Origin: Eremomyces bilateralis CBS 781.70
Taxonomy: Eukaryota
Strand: one strand, 5' to 3'
Length of the DNA stretch: 64,000 nucleotides
Assembly: GCA_010015585.1 (NCBI GenBank)
Contig: ML975165.1
Shown here: in pieces, positions 26,894-47,876 of the stretch
Layout: each line of letters opens with the position of its first letter
Numbering within the stretch: the first letter of the stretch is position 1
The notes under the pieces: model-generated
Seen by the model: the letters and a program-made list of their open reading frames with translations, nothing else
The model's database searches: none
What the model was told of the DNA's origin: nothing
Program-made: the position numbers and the translations under genes

Positions 26894-28765
26894 TTAGATC
26901 TTGTCTGGGTCATTGATGCCTCCCTGCGTAATGACGTATGTCGCCTCCTTCTCAGGCATGTCTTAACCACATTAGCGGAGACCTTGTTGGAGACCCACAG
27001 AGCGATACATACCAGGCGAGTCTTGGATCTTCGCAACGCGTTCCTCGCCCCGCCCCTTCCTGAGCAACAGTCGGGTTGCTGATGCGTGAGAGAGAACATG
27101 TCCTCCCACGGCTTTGCGTCCATCCGCACCGGCGAAAAGGGCACTAGCCCCAGGGTCGCTTTGGACTTGGTTGGTCTGAAGAGATCAGCACTGTCGAAAG
27201 TTAAAGACGTGTCGAACTGACCATGAAGGCGCAGACGTTGAAGTCTATTTTATGTTAGCGTCTTCTAGAAGATCTTATTGGATAAAAGTCCTACCCTCTG
27301 CAGTACGCGTGAGCTTGTACAGGAACTGGCCGAGTTTCTGTTGACGCTCAGAGAGCTCCCCACGACCAGAGAAATCTACGCGAAAGAGAGCGATGATGCT
27401 GTCGACAATGATAAGTCGATACTCGCCGGACGCGAAGGGGTGCGCCAGCTGGTTCAGCAGATCTTGTAGATGCTGCAAACTATGTCAGTAACAACGACGA
27501 ATCCGCGGAGCGAAGGAAGATACCTCGCTATTCACTGCTCTTCCGACAAGAATATTCTCGAGACACGTATCACCATCCACTTCAAAACAGTTGGTAAGTT
27601 GTCCGCATCAGAAAGGGTCTTTGAAGGTCTGCCACTTACAGCCAAATCGCTCAGCAATCTGGTGGATCCTTTGTGGAGTAAATATCAGGCTGAGTGTAAC
27701 CGAGGAGCGAGTAGGACTCTTACCTTTCAGGCCGAAATGTTCCTTCGGTGTCTGCAGCTTGTGAGCCGAAGCGATTCTCAATGTATGAAATCGGACACTA
27801 ACCAATGTATGCAACCTTGCCTTCAGCACCACCCTGGTCCTTTGCGAGGTTAGAGTGACAATTGCTACATCCCTCAATGATAGAAGCAGTGTTTACCTTG
27901 GGAAGCTGTAGAATGGGGTTAGTCAAGTTGCAACTTGATGCCGTTCATGAACAATACAAGGGCCATACCTGAGCAATGACAGACAAAGTGTGGGCGATTT
28001 GAGTCTTCCCGCAGCCTTGTTCAAATTAGCAGAGTATTGTACCTACGAATTAAGCTATTCCGTACGATACTCTCCGAAAACCTAGATCAGTCAGAAACCG
28101 TCAGGGAGCAAATCATGTCGATAACTTACCTCACTGAGACTTGCGCTCTGGAACCCGCTGTACAATGGTAAGCATAGTCCGGACACCGTGGCGACAGGCT
28201 TACCCTCCTAGAATGGAGTCTAGGTTCTTGCTACCAGTGCTGAGCCTGAAAACTCGTTTCCGCTTCTGACCGAGTTCCATCGCCGTCATGAAGCTGAACG
28301 CTGTAGGCTGAGAGCGAGGTGAGCCGTGTGACATGTTAGCAAGTCTCGACGATTCAGCTTACCTGGCATTTCGTGATTGCCTCCTTGACTTTGTCGACCT
28401 TGATCTCACTGAAGCCTTTGATTTTGGAGAGCGTACGACGAGTCGCAGCATGGACAGACTGATTGATTAGCTTCTGTGCCGCTGCTCGATATCGTCCATG
28501 CCTCCAAAGGAGGCCATAGCCATCACAGAACTTACTGCGACTGTACAGTATCCATTGACTTTCAGCTTCTGGATATCCGCCGCATTGATACCTAAACCGT
28601 GTCAATCGTCTCATGTACGCGACGAAACCGTTAGAACCATACCATGGGCCTGGATGGCGTCAATGTCGACGATAAAATCCTGTTTTGCCTCAGATCACTG
28701 ATTCTCCTCTCAAGGTTGGGGAAGTCTACGTCTTCAATTTCGTCGCTAACCACCGAAGAAGGCAT
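26894..28765 (-). CDS. DMC1: Meiotic recombinase Dmc1
   Basis: Reconstructed across 17 exons: [26 protein letters not shown], Walker [98 protein letters not shown]. The DFSGRGEL and SDPGA signatures favour Dmc1 over Rad51. Confidence 0.93.
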
Positions 28766-29876
28766 GGTGATCACGAAAGTATGCTCCCTGAATCCGATGC
28801 TGCTACCTAGTTAAAGTGACGCTGTGATGTAGCGACTCAAACAAAGTAAATCTGATGGGCAAAATGAATGAACATGTAGTACCTTCGTGAAGATGTTCCT
28901 CGAACGAGTATCGAAACGGGAGGTATTCAAATTGCTAGAGGGCCATTGAAACAGGCAGTTCAGGTCGCGCCTACCGTTTGGGGACGATGTCAAGGCCTGA
29001 GGCCTGATTTGACAGCTTGGGCAGGGAAGTACCCAAAGGGGGTGGCTCCTTCCCTATATGATGTTCCAAAGTCATGTGTCTGCTCACATGATTCATCGAG
29101 TATAATTCGCGTTGATCGCAATGACGTGGGCGGACATATATGTATTTCAGTTCGTAGGGCATCCCGCGATACCAAACACGGGACGGCGGACAAAGGGCAG
29201 GTCAAAATCACAACGTGGACAGAAGTAGATAGTCAGATAGGCCATGATGCGACTGTGAATTTAAGAACTACTTGCCCAACTGTGTGTGGAAGAATAAAAA
29301 ACGGGAAAACGAAAAGCATCACGATGGATGCCAAACAACCTTCAAGAGGCTGGCCGACACATGCAGAAACACCACCTTCACTCTTTAATCTCCCTTCCAT
29401 CTGAACTTATCCCCAGCTCCGCCTGAAACTTCGCTCTCGGGTGACGTCTCGTCACCTTGCCGTCACTTCCCTCACAGCTCTCCACCATCCTTTGCCTTCG
29501 TTGGATACTCGCAGATGTTGGTCCAGTGGAACCTGGCCCGATCGCCGACCATGATACATGATCGAACCTCACTGGAATGGATAGAGTACAGGACTGAAAA
29601 CCTCAGGCCTTTCGTCGACCGGCCTTGAGGTGTGTAAAAGGGATGCAAACGCATGGGTATCGGGATCTCATCAACGTGGTAGAGGGTCGTGTAACGTCAT
29701 GCCGGTGTCGGGAAAAGGTGTAAGGGCAACCGTGGGCATTGGTGAAACGATCGTGATAAGGTAGGAAAGTGAATCGAAAAGGAAATTGATGCACTCCAGC
29801 TACAAGATGTAGCGTTATATCTCTTAACAGGGATAAATTGTGCCGTGCCTCTGCGCTATATAATCGGTCTGCACAA

Positions 29877-30749
29877 TTAGGCGACCGCAGGAGCGGTAGG
29901 CGCAGGCACACTTTGAACGGGTGGGATGCCGTCCCCATTGACTTCGCCAGCCTGAGGGCATTCCTTCGAGATGTGGCCGACTTCACCGCAGCGGTAGCAA
30001 GTCTTCGCAGCTCCAGATCCAAGAGGTCCTCCGTTCGGGGCGGTGCAGTCGCGAGAGATGTGACCGAGCTTTCCACAGGCGTAGCACTTCATCGCCTGCG
30101 CTTGACAGTCGCGGGCGAAATGGTTGGGACCGCCGCATTTGTAGCAAGTCGCAGCGCGAGGAGCACCACCGGCAAATCCACCGCGCATGCCACCATAGCC
30201 ACCGCGTATGCCACCCGCACCACGAGGGGGTCCAGCACCAATTCCTGGCGCGGCCGCACTCGTACACTGACGCTACTTCTTGTCAGAACACCAGCACTCA
30301 TCAACTCCCACACCCACTCACAGCTAGATGGCCAGGCTGTCCACAGTTGTAGCAGCGACCACTGGTTGCACCACTCAATCGAAGGGTCGGGCAGTCAGCC
30401 TGGACGTGTCCGAGGCCTTGGCAATGGTAGCATTGCTTCGCTAGTCGAGTGTCAGGCATTGTCCATCAAGGATTCCAATTGCGAGATGCTTACATTCGGT
30501 CGTTCGTGGGTGAGGGCAAGCGTTGGACTCGTGGCCTGGTTGCTTGCCTAACGAGCCGATTAGCACTTATCCGAGACATTGTCATGGTGGCGCATGCACT
30601 TACAGTTATAGCAAAGTCGTTCAGACGATGAGCAGACCTCTAGTCTATCCGTTAATATTGACATCACGTCATCCAGCCCAGCTCGACGTACCGGCATAGT
30701 GGCCGACGTTGCCACACTTGTAGCATGCACGACGCGAAAGTGAAGACAT
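29877..30749 (-). CDS. CNBP/Gis2/Byr3-like multi zinc-knuckle nucleic-acid-binding protein
   Basis: MSSLSRRACYKCGNVGHYA...; seven CX2CX4HX4C knuckles and an RGG box across several introns. Confidence 0.92.
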
Positions 30750-32570
30750 CCTGAATCCTGATCCTTCCGTATGTTCCTATTCCTGTACTCGATTCGAATG
30801 TCAGATATTCAGGTCGATCGAAGCGCTACGGCTGGCCAAGAATGCGACGGAGGAGAGGTGATAGATTCTTCGCAAGGCCGAAACGTGGCGGTGAAGCTAG
30901 CTAGCTCCAGGTCAAGGCAACAACTCGATCGCAGTTCAACGACAGTCAACCTCCAAAATTGCGATCGGAAATGCGCAACGTGATTGGATTGCGTGAATCG
31001 ATTGGGGTGAGTGTTCGTTTGATGGAATATATTGGAATACCTTTCAACGGCTTCCCGAGCTCTCTGCAAATCCTTTCATTGTCAGCATCAGGATGAGAGT
31101 TGGCGGAAGTGAAGAGCCACGGCAAGATCTCATGACAAGAGCGTCCAGCGGCCAATCAAGCCACGAGTAGAAAGGATGAAGAATGGATAACCTACAGTAG
31201 TCCAAAATCTCAAAGCTCCTGTCCTAACCTTCCCGCAGCGACTCGACTCGTCCGTCCCACCAAGAGAAACACCGGAAGATATAAGTTTAGTGTTACGAAG
31301 GGCATCCGTGTCGTGGCGGAATGGATGGGAAGTTAGTTTTGAGGGGGAGAAAGGTTCAGAGGACGGACGGGGAACAGCGGTCCTGTGCTGAGAGCGTCCT
31401 GGACTCCTGGTGGAGTGCTGCGCATGCGGCGGGTGCTGAGGGCGTCTGGGGGTGCCAGCCAATTAGGAGTGGCTCTGACCTGGTCGCCCACTCAGCCACG
31501 CATGCCAGCTCTGTCACCCATCGCAATTTGCAGCAAAGTTGGCGGTTGCTAGGGAGTGCATAGCTAATACCTACGCCTACACCCCAGGGCGGGCTACATC
31601 ACCGCCTGCACGGACAGCACCGACATCCGCACAACCTGCAAGTCTTCTGCAACTGCTGCACAGTGTACTCCTCCAAATCTCCAACTGTCCACCATCATGA
31701 AATGCTAGAATGTGAAAATCCCTCCATACTCCTGCATACTCCATGCCCGATGATACTCACCTCCGGCATGTTCCCTTTGCTCATCGCTCCCCTGCAGCAA
31801 AACCAGGCCTCGGGATGTCGGGATGGACGGACAATGCAGCCGAATCGACAGGCCAATTGTCCAATAAACCTGACAGTCTCTGTAAAAAGGGACACATCTT
31901 TTCTGGCATCCTGACACTTTGTCCATTCGTTCGCAAAACCTATTAGCCAATCATCTCTTCAGGGCTCCTCAGGATGGTTTCGCTTCTATGGCTTGTTTAG
32001 GCATGTGAGTTGACATGTTCATACTTCATACTACAAACTGATGCCATGGAACTCGCTTTCACCCTCGGGAATCTCGTATTGTCGCCTTTGCACAGGGGTT
32101 TACGTATTACTTTATTACTTAGGACTTGGATTACGGATTGGTGCCCTTAGTTTCATCCATCCAGCTCAAACCATTTATTATTCAATTTTTTAACTTGTCT
32201 TCCTTGCGATTTGCGAAGGCATAGAGTATCTCTGTAGCTATAATTAGGAGTAATAGTGTTAAATAGGACACGACTTTCCCTCCCGTCCACACTAGTCCAC
32301 GGCGGTGCTTGGCCATTTCTTCTCATGGTTAGCGCGCTCTGAGCTCTATTCATGAACCAGACAGGATCCAGGTGGAAGAGTCTGCTCGGCTCTACTTCGG
32401 TAACATCAGGTATCCCGCGCCCCCGCTCCGTCCCGCTCATCCTCGTCGCCGACATCGCGCACCGCCACAGCATAAAATTGATTCTCACGTGCATCGTGTA
32501 GAGTCATAATTGAATGGAAATATGCCTTCGGTAGATTCATAACATTCCGGCAAATTGTACATTCCAAATC

Positions 32571-34747
32571 ATGTCGAGTAACGCCCCCATTTCAGAGGGG
32601 CGAGGGCGTAGTCAGATCTATCTCTCAACCAGAGGTGGCGCCTCCGGGGTGCGTTTTCCTTATGGGATATCTGAGCGGCATACTAAATCGCCATAGCTTT
32701 CGTTCGAGAATGCCGTGCTTCAAGGACTGGCCCCCGATGGTGGCCTCTTCTTGCCCTCGGAGGTTCCAATTGCTTCAGATTGGGTACGTTGAATCATTCT
32801 GCGACAAATTGTTTGCGGGTGCCGGGACTAAATCCAGGATTAGGAGAGCTGGAAGGACCTGTCATACACTGAATTGGCCTTCCAAATTCTGAGCTTGTAT
32901 ATATCGACCGTTGATATTCCCTCCGAGGACCTGAAAAACATCCTCAATCGAAGCTACTCGACTTTCCGGGCCAAAGACGTCACGCCCCTAGTTCATCTCA
33001 AGGATAATCTCTACCTCCTTGAGCTCTTCCATGGCCCTAGCTATTCGTTTAAAGACTGTAGGTGTGCTATATCGTCGATAGTGACTATTGACTTACAGTG
33101 ACGTAGGTGCATTGCAGTTCTTGGGAAATATCTTCGAGTATTTCCTAGTCCGGAAGAATCAGGGCAAGGCAGGAAGAGGTGGGCTCACTGATATCCTTGA
33201 CATCGTTAATCGCGCTCGGTGACTGACTGGCCTCTAGACAGACATCACTTGACAGTCGTTGGAGCAACAAGTGGCGATGTATGCGCTCTTTGTCAAGTCT
33301 TGCCGCAGACGATTACTAACCGAGTGTACAGACTGGATCGGCCGCAATCTATGGACTCCGAGGCAAGAAAGATGTCTCGGTATTCATCCTGCATCCAAAG
33401 GGGCGCATTAGCCCTATTCAACGAGCTCAAATGGTCACTGTTTTGGACGAGAATGTGCATAACCTGGAGATTGAAGGAACGTTCGATGACTGTCAAGTAA
33501 GTGAACTCGCATTGTCCTTATGGTATGCGCTCACCGAGTGTTCAGGATATCGTCAAGGCGATCTTCGGTCACTTCGATACGGATTCAAGCTTGAACATCG
33601 GCGCCGTCAACTCCATCAATTGGGCAAGGATCCTGGCTCAGATCGTTTATTATTTCCATTCCTACTTCCAACTCGTCAAGACGAATTCCATCAAGATCGG
33701 AGAGAAGGTCAGATTCGTGGTGCCCACTGGGAACTTTGGGAATATTCTTGCAGGTTTGACCCTCCGCCTCGATATATTGACCGGGACTAAATGATCTCTG
33801 CAGGATATTTTGCACAGCGGATGGGACTTCCAATAGAGAAGTTGGTCGGTACGTACAGCTTCTTTCGAATTCTGATTTTATCTATGATTTATGCTAATCT
33901 GTTTTAGTGGCAACGAATGAGTGAGCTGCATTACGATCTTGTTCTGGGCCATTGCTAATTCTAACCAAGGAATGATATTCTCGACCGGTTCTGGAGGTCC
34001 GGTACGTACGAGAAGCAACCAGTCAAAGGAGCGGAGGCAGAGGGTGGTCTGGAAACAGACGGTGTGAAGGCACACACTGAGGGCTGCAAGGAGACGCTTA
34101 GTCCGGCGATGGACATTTTGGTCTCCAGTAACTTTGAGAGACTCATGTTCTACCTTGCCAAACGTAAGTTATTCAGTGATACCAGTCACCAAGCACTGTC
34201 TGCGCTCTGGATGTGCTAATCGGATGCAGAATTCGCATTAACCAACGGTATGGACGACGAGTCGAGCAACAAAAAAGGAGCACAAGACGTTGCATCCTGG
34301 TACCAATCCCTCAAAACAACGGGCAAGTTCGGGCCCGTGCCCCAAGATCTCCTCGAAATCGGCCGCCGTACCTTCGAAAGCGAGCGCGTGAGCGACCCCC
34401 AGACTGTCCAGACGACGAAGGCCTACTACGAATCAGTCGGGTACATCCTCGATCCGCACTCTGCGGTCGGCGTCACTGCTGCCGAACGATCCATCTCGCG
34501 AGCTGGCAAGGACGTCTCGCACATTTCGCTGTCGACCGCGCATCCGGCGAAGTTTTCGTCGGCTGTCGGACTGGCGTTGGAGGATGAGAAGGACTTCGAT
34601 TTCGAGGCGAAGGTGCTTCCTGAAGAATTCCGTGGCCTCTTGCAGAAACAGGAACGGCTCACGACGGTGGAGAACTCCTGGGAGCATGTGAGGGAGCTTC
34701 TCAAAAAGCAAGTGGAAGAGGAGTTGAAAGCCGGAAGCAGCAGCTAG
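32571..34747 (+). CDS. THR4: Threonine synthase
   Basis: YLSTRG, GLAPDGGLFLP, LELFHGPSYSFKD (PLP lysine), VVGATSGD.GSAAI, GAVNSINWARILAQ, VPTGNFGNILAG, LDPHSAVG, STAHPAKF; about 10 introns including a 13-nt exon at 33908-33920. Confidence 0.96.
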
Positions 34748-34933
34748 GCGGGCATATGTCGGTATATTGTGGTTTCACTTCATGAGAGGATTGTAGAGAT
34801 TACAGAGTCAAATAGAGCAAACATGCGCCGCTCGAGGACATATTCCATGGTCATCGAGTAAGATAGTATATATAAGTCTGAGTATTTGACGTTGCGTCAT
34901 CATTCATGATCTTTCCCCATATTAGGATCATCT

Positions 34934-35425
34934 CTAATAGTACGGAATTGCTGCGATAGCCTCAATCTCCACCAGGAAGTCTCCAGGTAGCTTGGCCACC
35001 TGCAGGGCCGTACGAGCAGGCTTGGGGTACGGCAACATCTTTTGATACACCTCGTTCATCGCTGCATAATCTTCAATATCGGCAAGGAAGACGGTGCATT
35101 TGAGGATATTCGCCAACGACGTCCCGGCCTCTTCGAGGACGACTTCGATGTTCTTGATGATTTGTGCCTGTACAAAACGTTAGCACGTTCATGAAGGGGG
35201 GTGTATTCACTATTAGCTTACGGTTTGATTCTTGATACCTCCTTCGACTATAGAACCGTTGAATGAAGGGGTTGTCCCTGATGTGTACACCAGTCCTTGG
35301 GCCGTGGCACCGCCAGACAAGAGTTTACTCTGGCTTCCGAGATAGGTCACCGGTCCAGTAGCGTTGTAGGCGCAAGCGGTACCAGCTACTGCGAGGCACG
35401 TAGCGAAGATACTAATGAGCTTCAT
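34934..35425 (-). CDS. RidA/YjgF/UK114-family imine/enamine deaminase with N-terminal signal peptide (145 aa)
   Basis: Intron 35168-35221. MKLISIFATCLAVAGTACA signal; LVYTSG, GIKNQT, ILKCTVFLAD..DYAAMNEVY, PKPARTALQVAKLP..LVEIEAIA; catalytic Arg of the PAR motif is present. Confidence 0.9.
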
Positions 35426-37505
35426 ATTCAGGACGTGTAGTGTAAGATTGTTGGAGTAAATGAGCAAGGACTTTCAATAGAACGGCTTTTGTTGGATAGT
35501 ACTGGCGAAAGTTGCAATGACTGGACTTGACAAAAACGCTTCTTCCTGACAACAGTAACTCAACATTTAGAGAGATTCATCCAAGTAATTATACCAGACT
35601 TCGTCACAGCACGGTGTCTATGCTGCGGCACTTTTCCTTCTCATGCCCAGAAGCGGCGGGACTTGATATCAGGAGCTGTGCATCTAGGCGCCTTGGCCGA
35701 ACACGGAAAGATATCCATCGTATCTCATTTACCTAAGTCTTCGAGTTCTTGACATGTTATACGAAGCAATCGTTCAAGATAGCTGATAGATCGTCACTTC
35801 ATCAGTGGTCACTGGTCAAGAGTGCAGGTAAGCTTGGTGTGGAGCAACGGCTGACCCCCGGCGAATACGAGATAGAGATCGGCAAAACTCGGTGAACTAC
35901 TTAGAGGTTAAAATCCTACGAACGGTACCTTATCTATTAGGTTTTAGGAATGGGGATTGGGGACATCATTCTATCAAAGATGAAAGAACCAAGCCTTTCC
36001 AATGCCCACAGCAGAAGGTTGCGGAGCCCTATCCCCCAGCGCTTCCACACTGCACGCGAGCGATCTTCAGTTCCCATCCGATGATCTGAAGCTCTCCAGT
36101 GCCGTTATTCCTTAGAATGCCGAAATGCAGGGTCTCAGAGATCGGCTGCCGATCAATTCGCGTGCAATGATATTCTAGAATAGACAGAGACCCACTAGCC
36201 TTTCAACATCAATTAGATATGACACATCGGTTCTCTGCGGTCCAGAGCTGTCCAGGTCTCAGGTCTCAACCAATCCATCATGTTCACCGTATTCTCCGAA
36301 ACGTTACATTGCTCCAAGCCTCCAGCAACTTGATGAGCGAGGGCAAGCCGTATCTTGGAGCCAAGAGACCGGAATGAAACCTAATTTCCTCCATCCATTG
36401 ACTGGCGAAAGTATCCGCAGTTCCGCACCCACACCACTCGTGTGCCAGACGCCAGTATTAATCGTCAGCAGAAGACTACGGCTGTCTGGGGCAAATTCAA
36501 GCCGGGCTATAATCGAAGTCGCTAACTTGTGGAGCAGCAGGATGAAGTAAATCGCAATGTGTGGGGGGCGTTGTCGCTCGTCCATAGCCCATCTCGCTCT
36601 GCTGTTCGATTTGGAGCCTCTTGACTCTTGAGAGTCGTCTAGACAGCTTCAGCTTTGAGCTTCCCGAAGAGAAGCATATCGGCATGCTTCATTCCGTGCG
36701 CGGATGAAGTTGTGGTAAAATTACCTGAAGGGGAAAAGCGCATGATGGTGGTCGTTTAGCGAATTCATCCTCCACAGTCCAACAGTTCATGGGGATAAAT
36801 CATGGCTGCAGCCTGCAGGCTTGCCCCTGTCGATTTCTCCAACCCGCCAAGCGGACAACAACCGATATCAAGATCTTCCTCCGGCCGCCGTCCCCACTCC
36901 TCTATTTAAGTCCTTATCAATTCTTTAGACGACACACCATTAGTACACAAGGCGAAAAGATCGGCATATGTACACTACAGCACACTACTGTCAACCGACT
37001 AACAGACAACAGTTCGGCCACCAAGTTCGTACCGATATCAAGTTGCGAACAAGCGACCTCATCCCCCCGGATATTCCACCGTTATCCACCACGTTTAAGG
37101 AATATGCCTCCTATCAGCGTGGGTGACGATAATGATCATCCCGCCGACTGGCCCGGAGATTACAATTTCCCTGCTAAAAGATCCCGCGGCCACGATGGCA
37201 GTGCATATTACGATAGACTTCCTAGTCAACGTCACCTACGCGAGTGTTCGCAGGAATCGTCTAAGACATGATCGCCCGTCGGCCTTTAGAACAGTCATAA
37301 GATTGATACACACTTGAAAGACCCTTAGCAGCCCGATATTATCGTATCTCGAGGTCGCCGAAATGCAGACAGCAATCCGCACTTGGGAGTTCGGAGGGCT
37401 TGAGGTTGTGGAACCAAGTACTCTTATAAGAGGAGAGTGTTCCGCTGTTGGAAGTCCGTGAGAGCTTCATCGATATCATCAAGTCAATTGCTATTATATG
37501 CCAAG

Positions 37506-39533
37506 ATGAAGACGCCCCACGCCATTTATACCGCGCTTTCAATAGCAACTGCTGCGCTTTCAACACCCCTTGGTACCAACCATGGGCTCGTTCAGTTCAA
37601 AGGCCCCATTAGTGTCGAGTCTGACTCGCTGCACAATGTCCACATTGGCTATGGAGATGATCTTGAAGGTGAACTCCGGGTGGTGTATGGAGACTGCGGC
37701 ATGAGTGCGGAACACGAGAAGCATCACGATATCACCATCACCATCGTTGACAAATCCTCCCGCCCCGATCGTCTGGTCTGGATTGTACCCCGAGAGATCC
37801 AGGCCAATGGTTGTCTTCATGCTTTCTCCAATGGAGGACTCGTGGGTCGATCCCTACCTATTGGCGTCTCTGCACCTCTTCGAAAACGTGAATTGTTAGC
37901 TGATGTTGCCGAAACAATGGGACCTTGGTTTGACGGTGTGGCATACATGCAATCCAAAAGCATCAATGCCGCTGCTTCAAAAGAAGCAAAGTCGAAGAGC
38001 ATTGCCATTGTCGGCGGTGGCATGAGCGGGCTCATGACCAGCTTGCTTCTTGAGTCGGTTGGTATGCACAACTGGCATATCCACGAGTCCACCCAGAGGG
38101 TTGCAGGTCGTGTCCGAACCAAGTATCTCAACAACACTACGCCTGACCAGTACCAATATCAAGAAATGGGCCCCATGCGCTTCCCAGTGAATATCAAGTA
38201 TTCCGATACCGACGAAAAAATCGATATCCAAGATCACAAGATGGTGTTCCAGCTCGGTGAGACTCTTAACAAGCTCAACAACAACGACCCAAGCGTAGCT
38301 GTCAATTTCATCCCCTTCATCCAAAACAGCCCGAACACTCCTGCCAGTTCGAATGGATACCGTCTCCCCGATGGTCGGATTCCAAGCAGCGCTCAACTCG
38401 AAGCCGACCCGTCCCTGAAAGGCCCTGCGTCCGTATCATCCAATCCCGAAGCCCAGGCTTTTGCCGAAGAAGCACTGGAACTGTTCGGAGGCATGACCCC
38501 CGACCGAATCAAGGCTTTTGCGACGAACGTCTACAGGGCCCACAAAGACGCGGTCGACCGCGGGTTATTTCACTGGTCCGAGGCTACTTATATTAAGTAT
38601 GCGCTTGACATGGACGCCAACCTCACGGACTCCATCGCAGGGGCTGAGCACCATCCGATGTGGCTTTATGACAATGTCTACTTCGGCGCTTCCGAATGGA
38701 AGACGATCGACAAAGGCCTCAGCTCCCTTGAGCGCGCATTCACACCGCTCGTGAAGGACAAGACCACCTTTGGCCGCAAGATTGAGGGACTTGCCTACGA
38801 TGCTGAAACCGACAAAGTGGCTCTCCAGTGGCGCGAGGATCCCTTCCAGATGGTACCCGAGACCGAGGAATATGACTATGCCATCGTCGCCGTTCCATTC
38901 TCGAAAGTGAGGGGCTGGAGCCTCCCGCGGTACTCAAGCCTTCTGACCCGTGCCATCGACACCATGAACTACCAACAGTCGTGCAAGATCGCACTTCACT
39001 ACAAGACTCGCTTCTGGGAGAAGTTGGATCCGCCAATCATCGGAGGATGCGGTTCCGTTGACATTTATGGTGTCGGTTCAGTCTGTTATCCTTCCTACAA
39101 TATCAACTCGACCGACCCCGGTGTCCTCCTTGCCGCGTACGCATCTGGCACTCCTGCGCGAACAATGGGCGCCCTGAGCGACGCGGACCACGTTGGTCTC
39201 GTTCAACGTGCCATGGTCGAGGCTCACGGCCAGATCGCCGCCGATGAGTACACTGGCATCTACGACCGTCAATGCTGGGAGATGGATGAGCATCAGGCTG
39301 GCGCGTGGGCCGCTCCCCTGCTCGGCCAACAGGAGCTCTACCTTCCTGCTTACTTCAACACGGAGTCCAAGACCATCTTTGTCGGAGAGCATACCAGCTA
39401 TACGCATGCCTGGATCTTCTCTGCCCTGGACAGCGCTGTGCGTGGAACCACGCAACTCTTGCTTGACCTTGGTTTGGTGGATGAGGCGAAAGAGATTGTC
39501 AACACTTGGATGGGTCGGTGGATTGCGGTCTAA
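37506..39533 (+). CDS. Secreted flavin L-amino-acid oxidase precursor
   Basis: Signal peptide MKTPHAIYTALSIATAALS; propeptide ending in LRKR (Kex2-like); FAD motif IAIVGGGMSGL, RVAGRVRT, QEMGPMRFP, KIALHYKTRFWE, FVGEHTSYTHAWIFSALDSA; intronless. Confidence 0.92.
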   Translation: MKTPHAIYTALSIATAALSTPLGTNHGLVQFKGPISVESDSLHNVHIGYGDDLEGELRVVYGDCGMSAEHEKHHDITITIVDKSSRPDRLVWIVPREIQANGCLHAFSNGGLVGRSLPIGVSAPLRKRELLADVAETMGPWFDGVAYMQSKSINAAASKEAKSKSIAIVGGGMSGLMTSLLLESVGMHNWHIHESTQRVAGRVRTKYLNNTTPDQYQYQEMGPMRFPVNIKYSDTDEKIDIQDHKMVFQLGETLNKLNNNDPSVAVNFIPFIQNSPNTPASSNGYRLPDGRIPSSAQLEADPSLKGPASVSSNPEAQAFAEEALELFGGMTPDRIKAFATNVYRAHKDAVDRGLFHWSEATYIKYALDMDANLTDSIAGAEHHPMWLYDNVYFGASEWKTIDKGLSSLERAFTPLVKDKTTFGRKIEGLAYDAETDKVALQWREDPFQMVPETEEYDYAIVAVPFSKVRGWSLPRYSSLLTRAIDTMNYQQSCKIALHYKTRFWEKLDPPIIGGCGSVDIYGVGSVCYPSYNINSTDPGVLLAAYASGTPARTMGALSDADHVGLVQRAMVEAHGQIAADEYTGIYDRQCWEMDEHQAGAWAAPLLGQQELYLPAYFNTESKTIFVGEHTSYTHAWIFSALDSAVRGTTQLLLDLGLVDEAKEIVNTWMGRWIAV

Positions 39534-39800
39534 TCATTGGTCGGACGCTGGTCGAGTGTAGCTGGAGGAAGTGTTTTATTTAATGCGTCGACAGGTCGAC
39601 TGATAGGTGCTTTGAGCATATTGATGACAATGACATGATCTTTTTACGTGTATGAGTGCAATCCCTGAGTGCAATCCCTGAGAGCCCCGCTGCTGTGCAT
39701 GACGGTCTTCGATTGATAAACTTTTGCATAAGCGGACGTAACATCATTCACGTACATGTTTTGCTCTCTGTGCTGGCCGGAGTTTTGGTTGCTAAAAGCA

Positions 39801-41503
<1,703 letters not shown>

Positions 41504-42185
41504 CTTTCTTATGCCAGGTATGGGAGAGACTAAGGTATTTGGTAGGAATTGACAAAGTAGTAGCACTTCGAGAATGTTCAGATGATAAGGTTCCCTGTCT
41601 CTGGCTTTAAATACTTGTAGGATTGAATCAACTTATTTTCAGCCCATCACCCTCCTGCACTTTCGGGTCTTGAGTCTGGTCTTGAATTGGAGGGGGTTGA
41701 ACTGTGTCCAACTCAGTCCAAGGCCCCAAGGCTCAGGGCAAGTTGCAGCTCCATGTCACTAGCTCCGGCTGTGCTACGCCATTGTCCCCACCAATGTCCG
41801 TGTGCGCTGCAGTGCCAATTGCGAAGATGCCCGAGACGGAACACGCCAAAGTGTAATTAGTGTCAAGTACGGACTACTCCGTACTCATCGAGCCAGAACT
41901 GCATCTTAATCAGGAGCGTGCAGGAGGCATAGGAACGGTTCGCCTAAATCGTGACGCCACCAGGTATGAGGTAAGAAAAGGAAAATTGACGAGACAGATG
42001 TTCAGGAGATTAGGAAAGTACCCAGAGCTCGAGCTTCTAGGGGTGAATATCATTGATGTTCGATATATGCACTAGGTTGCCTGCGATTATCTTATGCGAA
42101 GACGAATCCAATATCAAACACCGCCGTGAGTTTGCCGCATTCAAAGAACTTTATTCAACCCTCAAATACCCGTGCCTTCGGAAAC

Positions 42186-43540
42186 CTAAGGAATGTGTCC
42201 ATTAATCGCCAGCACTCTTACGCTTTCATCGACCGTTTCGGGGTTCGCACCAGGTTCGGCCGGTCTCAGCGATGGCAGAGGAGCAGGGTTCAGAATCTTG
42301 ATCGCATCGATCAATGGAGCACTTGGGTTCACCTCCAGACCAAAGCCCGGCTTGTTTAGCTCAGAAACATCAAGATAGCCGTTTACTGGGATTGGCTCGT
42401 TCAGGAACAAGTTGCCGAACACAGGTAAGACCGACTTGCCATCCGGTGAGTTGGCAAGATACTCCTGAAAGGGGGAGTTCGCTTGTGAGACAACGAAGTG
42501 GTAGCTGTACGAACCGCTGGCATGCGGCACAATCGGGATGTCATACGCAGATGCCATAGCGGAGATCTTCAGAAGCTCTGTCATTCCGCCAACCCACATG
42601 ACATCCGGTTGAAGGATGTCCAGATTTCGGCCCTCGATGAGCTTTCGGAATCCATAGCGGGAATACTCATGCTCTCCGGTCGTGAATTTGGTTCGGGGAT
42701 GTGCTCGCTTGATCAGCTCGTAGCCCTCGGTGTCGTCTGGACTTAAACACTCCTCAAACCAGTTAATCTTGAGGTCTTCGCATTCCCGGGCTAGTTCGAT
42801 CGTATAAGGAACGTTCAGGCTCATGTAGCAGTCGACCATGAGAGGAAAGTCGAATCCGACACTCTCGCGATGTTTCCGGAGAAACTCGACATTCTTTCGC
42901 ATGCCTTCCGCTCCCTCTCCAGGGCCGTAAGGCAGAGGGACCTTAGCACCACTGAATCCCATGGATTTTGCAGCGGCAGGTTCTGGCCCTGTGCAATAGA
43001 AGTCGAGCCTGCTTCGAGTGGCGCCTCCTATCATCTTGTACACGGGCTCGTTCCGTATCTTCCCCAGTAGGTCCCAGAGCGCAAGGTCAATGACTGAAAT
43101 GACCGCAACTGGCAATCCTTTTCGGCCATAGAACATGGAAGCCCGGTACATCTGCTCAAACACATGGTTTGTGTCTCTTGGATCTAGTCATATTAATCGG
43201 AATTTATATCCAATGTGCAGTCGAAGGCCTTACCGGCTCCTATGAGGAATCGTTCAAAATGTTGAGCAACGAGCCAACACGCAGGAGGTCCACCAAAACC
43301 AGTAGCGAACCCTTTACTGCCATCTGATGCTTCGATTTGCACGCAGAATGATCCAAGGACATTGATTCCCCAACTGGTCCGAGATTGTCTGTACTCTTCA
43401 TACTGCGACATGGGCGTGGAGATTTTGGAATCAATCAACCAATGCCCACCTTTTACATTGTGATAGTCCCCTCCCGACCCCACGCCATGCAGGATGAATG
43501 TACGAACGCCATTGACTAGGGGAAACGCCTGAACCGGCAT
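42186..43540 (-). CDS. L-rhamnonate dehydratase (mandelate racemase/enolase superfamily, LRA3/LraC-like)
   Basis: GGDYH..KGGHWLIDSKISTPMS, SWGINVLGS, DLALWDLLGK, LMVDCYMSL, WFEECLSPDD, TTGEHEYSRYGF, LQPDVMWVGG; one coding intron near 43185-43233. Confidence 0.92.
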
Positions 43541-43957
43541 GATGCCGTTCGTCTCGCCTTGAGGGAGCTTAGCAGCAGGCGTCTTAAGTGTCAAATGGTT
43601 TTTGTCGCGTTACGCAAACTGATCAGGTCTATCACTTACGGTCCGTGTCTACTGCAGCAGGATGGTATATATCCAGAAGCGGGCGCTCTCTACTGCAAAT
43701 CCGCTACATTTTCAGACAGATTGCGGCGAGGGTGAGATGAGCCCGACGCCAGGATTCTGAGTCGCAGAGATTTCCGTCGGTGTATTAAATGCTGACTAGA
43801 ATTCAGACATTTCACTTATTCTTGCGTCTGGCAATCTTCGTCACTCGACAATCGACAGCCGACACTAATTATTATTAGCTGCAACCAGACCGCTAGGCGA
43901 CTTCAGTCACCCCATCGGAGCCATTAGCCCGATCTGGGGGATGGTCAGCGGCCCCAG

Positions 43958-43974
43958 CGGGCATTGATGGCCCG
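43958..43974. promoter_or_regulatory. CGG-N11-CCG inverted triplet, candidate Zn2Cys6 (RhaR-type) binding site
   Basis: CGG gcattgatggc CCG in the divergent promoter; a CGG-N10-CCG lies at 43916-43931. Confidence 0.45.
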
Positions 43975-44173
43975 CGACATTGGCGTGACGGATGCCGCAA
44001 CAATATTCCCGTCTCTAGAGCCCAACTTGGCCCATCCCCAACCCCGCAAACCGGTCGGCTGTCACAACCTTGCAAGCCCGAATCTGACTGAGATCAGCTC
44101 TCTCGGTCTATCACCGAACGAGAAGGAATGGCAACTCCCTCAGTTGCTTCCTCTGTCTCGATGCGCTGCAGCC

Positions 44174-46732
44174 ATGAGCTTGCCCGGCAACCAGCCGCAG
44201 CATTTCGCCAGTCCGCAGTCGCATTCGGCCTCATCTGGCGCCCACCAGTCCCCTGACGAAGTAAACAACCTGAGACACGCGAATGGTCAGTGGGACGGCA
44301 ACGAGAGCAATGGGGAGGACGAGCAGGATGGCTCCAGGAAGCGGAAGAGATCGAATGGACCGGTGTTGGAGGGACCAACGCCGGTCTCATGCGAAATGTG
44401 CAAGCAGCGCAAAGTAAGATGCGATCGTGGACAGCCAGATTGCGGCTGGTGTGTGAGGAACGGTCACGTATGCGAATACAAGCCCCGCAAAAAGCCTGGA
44501 CTAAGAGCGGGTTATGGGCGGGAATTAGAATCAAGACTTGGTAAGTATACGATCGAGAAAGCGCCTGGGATGGGATGGCTAATGTTTGGATCAAGATCGA
44601 CTTGAGGAATTGGTCCGTATTCAGCAAACCACCATCACGCAGCTTGCATCGGCGCAAGGGACGGTTATCGAGACATCAACTGCTCCTCCTACAACCTCAG
44701 ACGTACAAACTGTCTTTAGAACTCCTGCGCCGTTACAAAAACCTCACATCCCTGGCCCGGAGACAGCACTGTTTTTGCAAAAACCATCCTCTTTCAACGC
44801 GGCCCCTACAATAGCTCACGACTATCGCACCAACCTCAATGGTGGACAGACATCGTTACACAGCGGATCAAGGACCAATAGTCTTCAGCAGAATATATCC
44901 GGGGAACCTCTCCATCCACAAGGTGCTCGAAATCACCCACGCTCCTCAAGAGACTCATATGGACAAGTTCCTGACCCGATTTTGGAGTCTTCATCTCTCA
45001 ATATCCGTAACAGCCCGCCTGCGTCGGACTCCATGGAGGGTGATCTACCGCCTCAGGATCTGGTATGGGCACTAACGACCCTTTTCTTCCACCATGTAAA
45101 TACATGGTGTCCAATCTTTGTACGGCGTCAGTTGAGCGATTCCCTATTCGGCTCCAAACCCTTGAATGACGATGATCGTATTATGCTTCATGCTATTGTA
45201 GCCACCAGCCTAAGATTCTCGACGGACCCACGGCTCACACCTGAGAGACGGACGAGGTATCATTCGATCTCGAAAGAGAAGGTGCTCCTCTACGGCCTTG
45301 AAAATAGCTCGGTGAGATCACTTCAAGCCCTGGTAATCCTCGCCCTGGATGTCGTTGGATCTTCCAATGGACCACCAGGCTGGAACCTCCTCGCTCTTAT
45401 CACGCGCTCAGTCGTCCAACTTGGACTTGCTGTGGAACCGAATTCTTCTACCGTGGTCCCCGCTTACCCCTCGATCTACACGCTTCGGGCCATGGTATTG
45501 CCGGGACCGATTGACTTTCATGAAGAAGAATGCAGGAGGCGGCTCTTCTGGATGATTTATCTGCTTGATAGATACGCCACGATCGCCACGGCGTTTGAGT
45601 TCGCGTTGGACGAAAAAGAAATTGACCGGAAACTGCCATGCCATGAACAATTCTTCGAGAACAATCAGCGTGTGGAGACTCGATGGTTCCGGTCCAAAGC
45701 AGACCCAGCAGAAGTTTCGGAGGACAGGCCAGACAACCTAGGAGTGTTTTCTTATTACGTTGAACTCATCGGGATCCTTTCACAGATTCATCAGTTCCTC
45801 AAGAAACCAGTTGACATCGGTGCGCAACCTGATGTCGATGCGTGGAGGAAGGAATACAAACAGCTGGACAGTGCCATCCAGCAATGGTATTATAGAGTTC
45901 CGGCCGAGATTCGCAATATTTCTTGTCTCTACCGTTCCGATCGCAACCCGCGGAATGCTCAGACCTGTCCATGGGTTATGCTGCATGCCGCTCACCAAAC
46001 GTGGGTCTGGCCAACCTTTCGTCCCGGGTTTTACTAACGTCTGCCAGCACCATCATCCGGCTTCATTCTTCAGCGGCATACCCGACAACCCGTTCTCCGA
46101 AATTCCAGCCTTCACGGTCTGCAGCGGACAATTGTGTCACTGCCGCCCAGCGGATCGTCGACCTGTGTACATATGTGCGGGACCACCAGCTTCTGGACAA
46201 GCTGGGTCCGCCCTTCGTATTCTCGGTCTGGGTCGCCGCTCGCCTCATCCTCGTAGACTGCACCACGCGCAAGCAGGGCATATCCACCGGAATCTGGACG
46301 CTGGTCGAAACCCTTCGAACCATGGGCAAGTACTGGCAAGTCGCCGAGCGATATGCCGACCTGCTCCAACGCGTCCTGGACGAGTATCAAGATTCTCTCC
46401 ACGCACCGCCTGGCCCAGATGGCGAGCGGACGACGCCGTCGGCCGTAAAGATTCTCGCCGACATGAGGAGGACGGCCTTCGATTCGGACTTCTTGATTTC
46501 TCGACAGCCTCGTGAACCAACTAGAAATGGTTCCATGGCTGGCGCCGGGACGTACAATGTGAGTGGGGGGGCACAGATGAGGGCCCTGGCGCCGAATGAG
46601 CTGGATTATCTGGAGATTTATGATTTCAATTGGCCACCGTTTCCCCCTCATGTGGATATGGGTCAAAACGAGTTCAATTCCGATCCCTTTCCGTTTCCGA
46701 ATGAAGATTGGATCTTCAACGCTCCATCATAG
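44174..46732 (+). CDS. Zn(II)2Cys6 transcription factor, RhaR/PDR-1-like
   Basis: CEMCKQRKVRCDRGQPDCGWCVRNGHVCEY..RKKPGLRAGYGRELESRL; fungal TF middle homology region (RRRLFWMIYLLDRY); two introns; divergent from the rhamnonate dehydratase. Confidence 0.88.
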
Positions 46733-47876
46733 ATTTAAAGAGCGGCTCGTTTGAAATTTCGGCTAGAAGAGGTTATGGAAGATACCACTCAGCTTTCGGG
46801 TTTTTTAACGGCTTGATGATACCTAATGGATGCCTAGGGAGCATTTCTACAATGTATCCAATTGTTCGGTTCTTTGTCTTGGCTAAAATATAACCACACT
46901 TGTTGTGGGAAGGCACATAATTATAACTTTAATAAAGTCAATCTTTGTAAAGTGGAGCATGAATGGCTATAGTGGCTTAGAGGGGGATTAGATTATTCTA
47001 GGACCCCCTGAATGTTCACTGTCATTGACCACCTCTTTTTGCAGGATGGTACAGAATAGAAGTACGTGTAGACAGCATGTCTCTGGATCAACAAGAAGAA
47101 GAATGAAGATGTGAGTTGCATCAAATGCCCACTCTAAATGGGGAGAGGAGGCTTACTGCTGCCTACTTAGATAGGGAAGACTGGATCAGTGAGAGACGTG
47201 CCTTCCACACAGCAGCGAGCATCCACATGTTACTGCATGCAGATGGGAATACCTGCGATGTAGGCGGAAAACTCGGAGCAGAGACTTCTATCCGTTGTGG
47301 TGAAGTCATAGTGCCGTACCATGGAGATGCTTGGAAGACAAGGACGGGGTTTTTAAACCCACCGATTCCTGGATCCAAGGAAGGCATGCTGCAGTCATGA
47401 TATTGAATGTTGATAAGGCGTGAGCGAATCCAAAAACTTAGGGAAGCACGGGAAGATTGAATGAAGCGTGATTGCATTTATCGGTTCATCTATATGAGGA
47501 CGCTACTCACACCTCGCGTCAAATCATCCTGCATTGCTCCATCATCAGATAATCTCTCCCAGACCATCACATCGTCACTGGAATCGTAGTGATATCGTGA
47601 CGCCCACTCTCCCGAATGGCCCCAACAGTGCGTCCCGTGGGGGTCGTTGGGGGTCGAGGGATCCATTGCCAAAAAAAACCCGGTAAACACCATGCTAAAC
47701 CTCAAAGTCGTCCTGAACTGTTCGTCGAGCGCGTGATGCCAAATCATCAAGCGCGCTGCTATGCCCCGTGAAGGCGAAAGTGCCTCGTGCGAATGCCCCG
47801 AGCATATGCCTTGAAGCCATGCAGAAAAGCAAGAAAGCAAATAATCTCGTGGTGCGGTGGAGATCGTGTCTCCGGA

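Follow-up and report, generated by a model that had tools for sequence, protein, structure and literature searches.

Oxidation of amino acids by an enzyme encoded next to a Rid-type imine deaminase has precedents in an alga and in bacteria. Deamination of external amino acids in Chlamydomonas is ascribed to a periplasmic L-amino-acid oxidase (LAAO), LAO1, whose gene is clustered with a putative RidA gene, LAO2 (PMC10805672, PMC7412212), a bacterial lao-cccA-ridA operon is reported together with co-occurrence of lao and ridA in 19 further genomes (PMC5053998), and Rid2 and Rid3 proteins are said to deaminate the iminoarginine formed by a Pseudomonas dehydrogenase (PMC5619798). Here we describe a fungal locus of this kind in a 64,000-nucleotide (nt) stretch of Eremomyces bilateralis CBS 781.70 (GenBank assembly GCA_010015585.1, contig ML975165.1), referred to below as the window. 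A gene for a small Rid protein and a gene for a LAAO-type oxidase stand head-to-head in it, 2080 nt from ATG to ATG, and the products of both have signal-type N-termini. A first-pass annotation made from the sequence alone had read the pair as a secreted two-enzyme deamination system, and the elements on which it relied are all present: a Rid protein with a hydrophobic N-terminus, three sequons (N21, N56 and N66) and the arginine of a PAR motif (R120), start codons facing away from each other at about 2.1 kb, and an oxidase with a signal sequence and a KR site, which is KR or RR in 107 of 108 relatives. The linkage of the two genes, whose conservation that annotation had proposed to check, proves to be conserved across three fungal classes, with flanks that are not.

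The Rid/YjgF gene (34934-35425, minus strand) consists of two exons and encodes 145 amino acids after splicing, and the spliced product is identical to the protein P0001, annotated as 'endoribonuclease L-PSP [Eremomyces bilateralis CBS 781.70]'. The gene structure is matched by one contig of run X1, a public sequencing run whose RNA type is presumed and which we used only for contig cover and bridging. This contig connects 35166 with 35221, and the 54 nt that it omits coincide precisely with the predicted intron (GT..AG, minus strand). It extends to 35525 and so includes the Rid ATG at 35425 together with 100 nt ahead of it in which no further ATG occurs. Because the contig lacks the intron and includes the ATG, a spliced form carrying the signal-coding part exists. 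The X1 contigs are uninformative on transcript ends and expression levels, and the gaps in their cover at 35526-35694 and 36649-37073 are excluded from the evidence. The oxidase is encoded by a single open reading frame (ORF) and exon (37506-39533, plus strand) of 675 codons. The features of the locus are as follows.

35425-35222, minus strand: Rid exon 1 (68 codons), from the sequence.
35369-35425, minus strand: predicted Rid signal sequence, residues 1-19, within exon 1 and followed by the start of the Rid domain.
35221-35168, minus strand: Rid intron (54 nt, GTAAGC...ACAG, GT..AG), from the sequence and the skip in the X1 contig.
35167-34934, minus strand: Rid exon 2 (77 codons and stop), encoding the C-terminal two thirds of the Rid domain with N106, R120 (PAR) and E137, from PF01042 and the invariant residues.
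35426-35525, minus strand: stretch upstream of the Rid ATG under cover of the spliced X1 contig, with 0 upstream ATGs.
35426-37505, no strand: divergent intergenic region (2080 nt, 10 HGATAR sites), from motif counts.
37074-37505, plus strand: stretch upstream of the LAAO ATG (432 nt, six ATGs), on the same X1 contig as the coding region.
37506-37889, plus strand: predicted LAAO signal sequence (about 1-19 to 1-23), all-beta prodomain (29-122; C64, C103) and start of the linker, from sequence, model and alignment.
37890-39533, plus strand: predicted mature LAAO-type flavoprotein, residues 129-675 and stop, with the flavin adenine dinucleotide (FAD) motif VGGGMSG, R225 and four conserved Cys, from PF01593, relatives in the PDB and the invariant residues.

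Conservation of the pair was followed in two sets of genomes. Scanning metagenome contigs with the oxidase gave 26 loci, 15 of which, having 1.9 kb or more of upstream sequence, are evaluable (in the remaining eleven this sequence is no longer than 1462 nt), and a Rid gene lies upstream in 11 of these 15, always on the opposite strand. L013 is the same as L014 over the pair, so that the count in distinct sequences is 10 of 14. The spacing between start codons is 1490-1791 nt in the eight metagenome loci where both ATGs can be placed. Among the matches listed, adjacent locus tags or accession numbers for the Rid protein and the oxidase occur in 15 named species of Dothideomycetes, Chaetothyriales and Hypocreales: Parastagonospora nodorum, Alternaria rosae and Curvularia clavata; Rhinocladiella mackenziei, Cyphellophora europaea and Lithohypha guttulata; Sarocladium strictum; and Fusarium solani, F. 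piperis, F. phalaenopsidis, F. lateritium, F. kuroshium, F. euwallaceae, F. sp. AF-6 and F. falciforme. When 19 kb of the window (28000-47000) is compared in translation with the 26 loci, the Rid and oxidase genes are the sole genes in common. The oxidase tree tracks taxonomy with Rid-linked members scattered throughout, and pairwise distances of the Rid proteins correlate with those of the oxidases (r = 0.73 over 12 pairs, a value reached by 1 of 2000 permutations). The linkage is conserved over three fungal classes far beyond chance, with flanks that are not common across the classes; the pair is old, has been co-inherited, and has been lost in some lineages.

Pleosporales-type loci carry additional conserved neighbours, namely an unknown 258-amino-acid ORF beside the Rid gene, a short-chain dehydrogenase and an alpha/beta hydrolase (L002 6646-7422, 12294-13364 and 13544-14371, and the matching parts of L001, L012, L013 and L016). 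These neighbours were found neither in the window nor in the L010 and L011 loci.

The N-terminus of the Rid protein has the composition of a secretion signal. Residues 1-19 consist of MK and a 17-residue uncharged core that ends in A-C-A just ahead of Y20, the first 25 residues include one basic and no acidic residue, and the best 12-residue Kyte-Doolittle mean is 2.50. In the structure model, residues 2-17 form a lone helix that precedes the Rid fold. A signal-type N-terminus is found in 40 of 46 fungal-type relatives (12-residue means of 1.96-3.10, with 0-3 K/R) and can be read from the DNA in all 11 of the Rid-bearing metagenome loci. The six relatives that lack it (P0006, P0007, P0014, P0017, P0027 and P0030) have unrelated beginnings and stem from metagenome or run-assembly gene calls, and we read their first exons as mis-called. 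Several members from Chaetothyriales and Sordariomycetes have KR, RR or RK right after the signal sequence. The sequons NAT, NGS and NQT begin at N21, N56 and N66, and 33 of the 34 fungal rows of the Rid alignment have a sequon of the form N-[G/A]-[S/T] at a common loop, as opposed to 0 of 10 bacterial rows. None of the 44 proteins in that alignment ends in anything like KDEL/HDEL or another endoplasmic reticulum retention signal. Taken together, these properties argue strongly for a cleavable secretion signal on the Rid protein. A mitochondrial presequence was also considered for this segment, and was rejected on the grounds that K/R are few, the core is strongly hydrophobic and conserved, and the ATG is the first on the spliced contig; on this point, too, the first-pass annotation stands, as it had named a mitochondrial or untranslated N-terminus as what would overturn it.

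Mature fungal Rid proteins are nearly cysteine-free, yet several have a single C-terminal Cys in the form PDC, PRC or PHC (P0009, P0012, P0023, P0043, P0045 and P0048), which could form an intermolecular disulfide. The Rid protein of the window has no C-terminal Cys and has an internal C92 instead.

Both sequence and fold assign the protein to the Rid family. Exon 2 alone matches PF01042 (9.1e-24, 84.2 bits against a cut-off of 27.3), and the structure model, with a predicted local distance difference test (pLDDT) score of 86.9, has the chorismate-mutase-like alpha/beta fold, its top Foldseek matches all being YjgF/RidA structures with target template-modelling scores of 0.72-0.89. The best solved relatives are bacterial YabJ/RidA (5e-25), followed by yeast Hmf1 (2.6e-17) and Mmf1 (2.5e-16). 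Proteins of the RidA subfamily are homotrimers with active sites between the subunits. R120, the equivalent of the catalytic Arg105 in enteric RidA numbering, is invariant in all 44 aligned rows (34 fungal, 10 bacterial), as are N106, E137 and K91. Equivalents were sought for Tyr17, Asn88 and Glu120, conserved residues of the RidA pocket, and the Asn and the Glu are invariant here. In a tree from which 14 mis-modelled or intron-retaining rows were omitted, 32 fungal rows form one clade apart from 74 other rows, with a Shimodaira-Hasegawa-like approximate likelihood ratio test (SH-aLRT) support of 100.

Export of Rid proteins may not be confined to fungi, as signal-like starts are present in 42 of 74 bacterial-type relatives, a biased set in that all members have at least 136 amino acids. 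Together with Chlamydomonas LAO2 and the bacterial lao-ridA operons, this makes too strong the first-pass premise that characterised Rid proteins are only cytosolic or organellar. None of 1713 ORFs in 80 loci with bacterial exported Rid genes matched the LAAO profile. In Acidobacteriota, mostly Pyrinomonadaceae (loci L027-L106, e.g. L040, L044, L054 and L059), a Rid protein with a signal-like N-terminus has PISPAI replacing GPYSQA, and its gene stands in the conserved order relA/spoT, Rid, SurA-like isomerase, ABC-F. Many top-scoring relatives in the representative library (P0257-P0266 and others) are proteins of about 320-460 amino acids with three tandem Rid domains; the diplonemid Lacrimia lanifica supplies one of them, and signal-like starts are present in some.

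The partner protein matches PF01593 (4.7e-35, 122.2 bits against a cut-off of 19.8). Among solved structures it comes closest to Trichoderma L-lysine alpha-oxidase and the precursor of that enzyme, to L-glutamate oxidase, and to snake and fungal LAAOs (about 1e-22 by HMMER, 1.6e-26 by Foldseek), and its identity to characterised enzymes is about 20%. The residues expected of such an enzyme are maintained in a set of 108 relatives of 660-690 amino acids: G170, G171, G172 and G175 of the FAD motif are invariant, R225 is present in 108/108, and C64, C103, C493, C515 and C527 are present in 108/108 and C590 in 106/108. R225 aligns with the Arg of GAMRIP in the solved relatives, and the Arg of this G-x-M-R-x-P motif is the carboxylate-binding one. 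These similarities point to the L-amino-acid oxidase clade of the flavin amine oxidases.

A signal-like start is found in 102 of the 108 oxidase relatives, and the dibasic site K127-R128, which lies in PLRKR with the predicted cut just before the following E, is KR in 95, RR in 12 and incomplete in one. The structure model (mean pLDDT 70.3) comprises a signal helix, a confident all-beta domain (29-122), a low-confidence linker (126-149) and the flavoprotein. The KR site falls inside the linker, where pLDDT is below 50, and the linker continues into the mature part. Since the beta domain is folded and the dibasic site is exposed in a linker, the 'propeptide' of the first-pass annotation is more accurately a folded prodomain. 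This prodomain (window 37575-37889, residues 24-128) returns no Pfam match and no usable ESM Atlas match. It contains two invariant Cys, and an inhibitor, chaperone or wall-anchor role is conceivable.

The region shared by the two genes is rich in GATA sites. Ten intergenic regions were compared, those of the window and of L001, L002, L007, L010-L013, L015 and L016. In nine shared regions, HGATAR sites number 91 where shuffles predict 42.4, an excess of about twofold, and the density is 4.7-7.3 per kb between the genes as compared with 0.8-2.8 per kb elsewhere in each locus. In the window, the intergenic count is reached in 19 of 620 sliding windows. The heptamer GATAACG is present in all ten shared intergenic regions (shuffle maximum 8), and CreA-, PacC-, Gcn4- and CCG..CGG-type patterns show little or no enrichment in the nine regions. 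The GATA enrichment is consistent with control by a nitrogen GATA factor. Nitrogen GATA-factor (AreA) control is reportedly found for LAAO genes of Aspergillus and Neurospora.

Several further observations concern the same region. The 8-mer TTCCAAGA/TCTTGGAA is present in eight of the ten shared intergenic regions (shuffle maximum 6) and may be a second shared control element. A gene hidden in the spacer of about 2 kb was considered and rejected, as its ORFs have no Pfam match, no Rfam match was found, and there is no tblastx conservation. A separate X1 contig of 954 nt covers the middle of the spacer (35695-36648); its ORFs reach at most 93 amino acids, it has no Pfam or Rfam match and it is not conserved in the loci, and it may represent a non-coding or promoter-associated transcript. 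The stretch ahead of the LAAO ATG contains upstream ORFs of up to 61 codons, and if 37074-37505 is a real leader these may control translation of the oxidase. Outside the pair, the flank on the Rid side is a threonine synthase (C-terminal part, 34250-34744) and that on the oxidase side a UDP-sugar pyrophosphorylase (40100-41503). The stop codons of the threonine synthase and Rid genes are only about 190 nt apart, and a 2618-nt X1 contig that includes the Rid gene goes on below 34700 toward the convergent threonine synthase.

With the gene structures, protein families, conserved signal-type N-termini and sequon, processing site and linkage as observed, we favour, with moderate confidence, a mechanism of extracellular oxidative deamination in which the Rid protein completes the conversion of imine to ammonium. 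The two genes would be transcribed divergently from one GATA-rich intergenic region, and both products would enter the secretory pathway by means of cleavable signal sequences. The oxidase would be made as a zymogen, with a Kex2-type protease that acts late in the pathway probably removing its beta prodomain at the conserved KR/RR site. In the wall space or outside the cell, the mature oxidase would convert L-amino acids to 2-imino acids and H2O2, and the glycosylated Rid protein would then accelerate hydrolysis of the imino acids to 2-oxo acids and ammonium, the latter to be taken up by the hypha. The secreted two-enzyme system of the first-pass annotation is partly supported.

A number of points weigh against this mechanism. 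Actual secretion, nitrogen-regulated co-expression, the substrate range of the oxidase and the action of the Rid protein on its products are all matters that we infer. The Rid signal call is a heuristic built on hydrophobicity, charge and conservation rather than on a dedicated predictor, and the GATA enrichment is measured relative to shuffles and mostly coding flanks, not to other promoters. The Rid protein narrowly misses the NCBIfam RidA subfamily TIGR00004 (103.5 bits against a cut-off of 106.25), and at the pocket position where many RidA proteins have Tyr, the bacterial rows have Tyr or Ile and 33 of 34 fungal rows have Leu, a change by which the specificity or activity of the fungal Rid protein may differ. 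The linkage also has exceptions: the Rid gene is absent at L004, L022 and L025 and at the 39%-identical paralogue L023, with no remnants even at E = 50, and the F. solani-melongenae tags 013660 and 013347 are non-adjacent. Among the matches listed, there is no Rid protein of this fungal clade from Aspergillus or Penicillium, with oxidases from both present, which hints weakly at loss of the Rid gene there. Given these oxidases and the oxidase loci that have no Rid gene, the oxidase works without Rid in many fungi.

Of the rival explanations, the first two are each unlikely in our estimation. The first is that the Rid protein is a bound subunit of the oxidase, taking imines at the exit of the active site or stabilising the enzyme, and not a free deaminase. 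The two fungal proteins are tightly co-inherited, the single C-terminal Cys of several fungal Rid proteins could provide an intermolecular disulfide, and the algal enzyme is described as consisting of a catalytic LAAO subunit complexed with a RidA protein (PMC5053998); however, the Rid protein of the window lacks that Cys, and many oxidase orthologues have no Rid neighbour. The second is that the module is mainly antimicrobial or competitive, with the oxidase acting through H2O2 and the Rid protein boosting turnover or clearing imines that would harm wall proteins of the producer. Antibacterial action of LAAOs through H2O2 is widely reported (PMC7248570, PMC6149928), and Rid proteins can, according to the title of one report, accelerate an amino-acid dehydrogenase reaction in vitro (PMC5619798). 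The GATA-site enrichment points instead to nitrogen control, and the loci encode no immunity or catalase functions.

A third explanation, which we regard as improbable, is that the Rid protein is kept within the secretory or vacuolar system, where it would shield the lumen from imines made by prematurely activated oxidase. The common route of the two proteins and the activation of the oxidase zymogen at a dibasic site would fit such a role, but the Rid protein has no retention signal or membrane anchor, and the zymogen design already restrains intracellular activity. That the Rid N-terminus is mitochondrial or untranslated and the neighbourhood coincidental, for which one might cite yeast Mmf1 (PDB 3quw), a mitochondrial Rid protein, is close to refuted by the 0-3 K/R in the first 25 residues with a conserved and strongly hydrophobic core, by the position of the ATG as first on the spliced contig, by the sequon kept in 33 of 34 fungal rows, and by a linkage seen in 11 of 15 loci and 15 named species with differing flanks.

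Extracellular oxidative deamination is the reading that we retain. A bolder version of it, which we offer tentatively and consider doubtful, is that filamentous ascomycetes evolved an extracellular imine machine independently of the algae, in which a glycosylated Rid clade with the Tyr-to-Leu pocket would be docked on, or disulfide-linked to, the Kex2-activated oxidase, and imino acids would be channelled to ammonium at the hyphal surface. If true, both a Rid subfamily in the secretory pathway and an extracellular role for imine hydrolysis would be seen here for the first time.

Rid proteins have been studied almost wholly as intracellular guards against reactive imines, and a secretory Rid clade tied to a secreted oxidase would show fungal control of imine chemistry outside the cell. 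The pair is also a two-gene system for asking whether catalysed imine hydrolysis limits the release of ammonium from amino acids, and it is present in tractable fungi such as Parastagonospora nodorum and the Fusarium solani complex. A function can be offered in this way for genes that are annotated as 'endoribonuclease L-PSP', 'translation initiation inhibitor', 'hypothetical protein' or 'amine oxidase'. Where fungal LAAOs are produced for biocatalysis, co-expression of the partner may raise the yield of keto acid. The literature searched yielded no account of a secreted Rid protein from a fungus or of a fungal Rid-LAAO pair; supplementary tables of fungal secretome studies, which lay outside the search, might list them.

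Comparison with known systems sets the fungal pair apart from each of them in some respect. Housekeeping eukaryotic RidA proteins (yeast Hmf1, PDB 1jd1, and Mmf1, PDB 3quw, and mammalian UK114) share the fold and the catalytic Arg, but they are intracellular, have no signal sequence or conserved sequon, and are a weaker match than bacterial YabJ. For the oxidase, the Trichoderma viride L-lysine alpha-oxidase precursor (PDB 7d4c, 7d4d) and other solved LAAOs are the best structural matches (Foldseek 1.6e-26 to 5.7e-25; HMMER 6.4e-23). The T. viride enzyme likewise is fungal, secreted and synthesised as a precursor; unlike it, the window oxidase has a prodomain that does not align by sequence, and the identity between the two is about 21%. 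The T. viride enzyme is not known to have a Rid partner. In Pseudomonas aeruginosa, Rid proteins are reported to hydrolyse the imino acids of neighbouring flavoenzymes, DauA and DadA/DadY, as we propose here, but that system is cytoplasmic, its Rid proteins are of the Rid2 and Rid3 subfamilies, and the partners are dehydrogenases (PMC5619798, PMC9714295). The lao-cccA-ridA genes of Gluconacetobacter diazotrophicus are similar in that a LAAO predicted to be exported is clustered and co-expressed with ridA; they differ in forming an operon that includes a cytochrome c and is implicated in auxin synthesis, and the RidA protein is not described as secreted (PMC5053998). In Chlamydomonas, LAO1 and LAO2 are described as likewise joining an extracellular LAAO to a clustered RidA-type gene; nitrogen starvation induces the system, by which ammonium is scavenged from amino acids outside the cell (PMC10805672, PMC7412212, PMC5053998). 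This system, compared by description only, is that of an alga, and the RidA partner there is said to be one subunit of a large enzyme complex. The fungal Rid protein, in contrast, is small and stand-alone with a classical signal sequence, and it is paired with an oxidase whose prodomain is predicted to be cleaved at a KR site. The concept thus has precedents in an alga and in bacteria, and the fungal version of the LAAO-RidA pairing is real and conserved.

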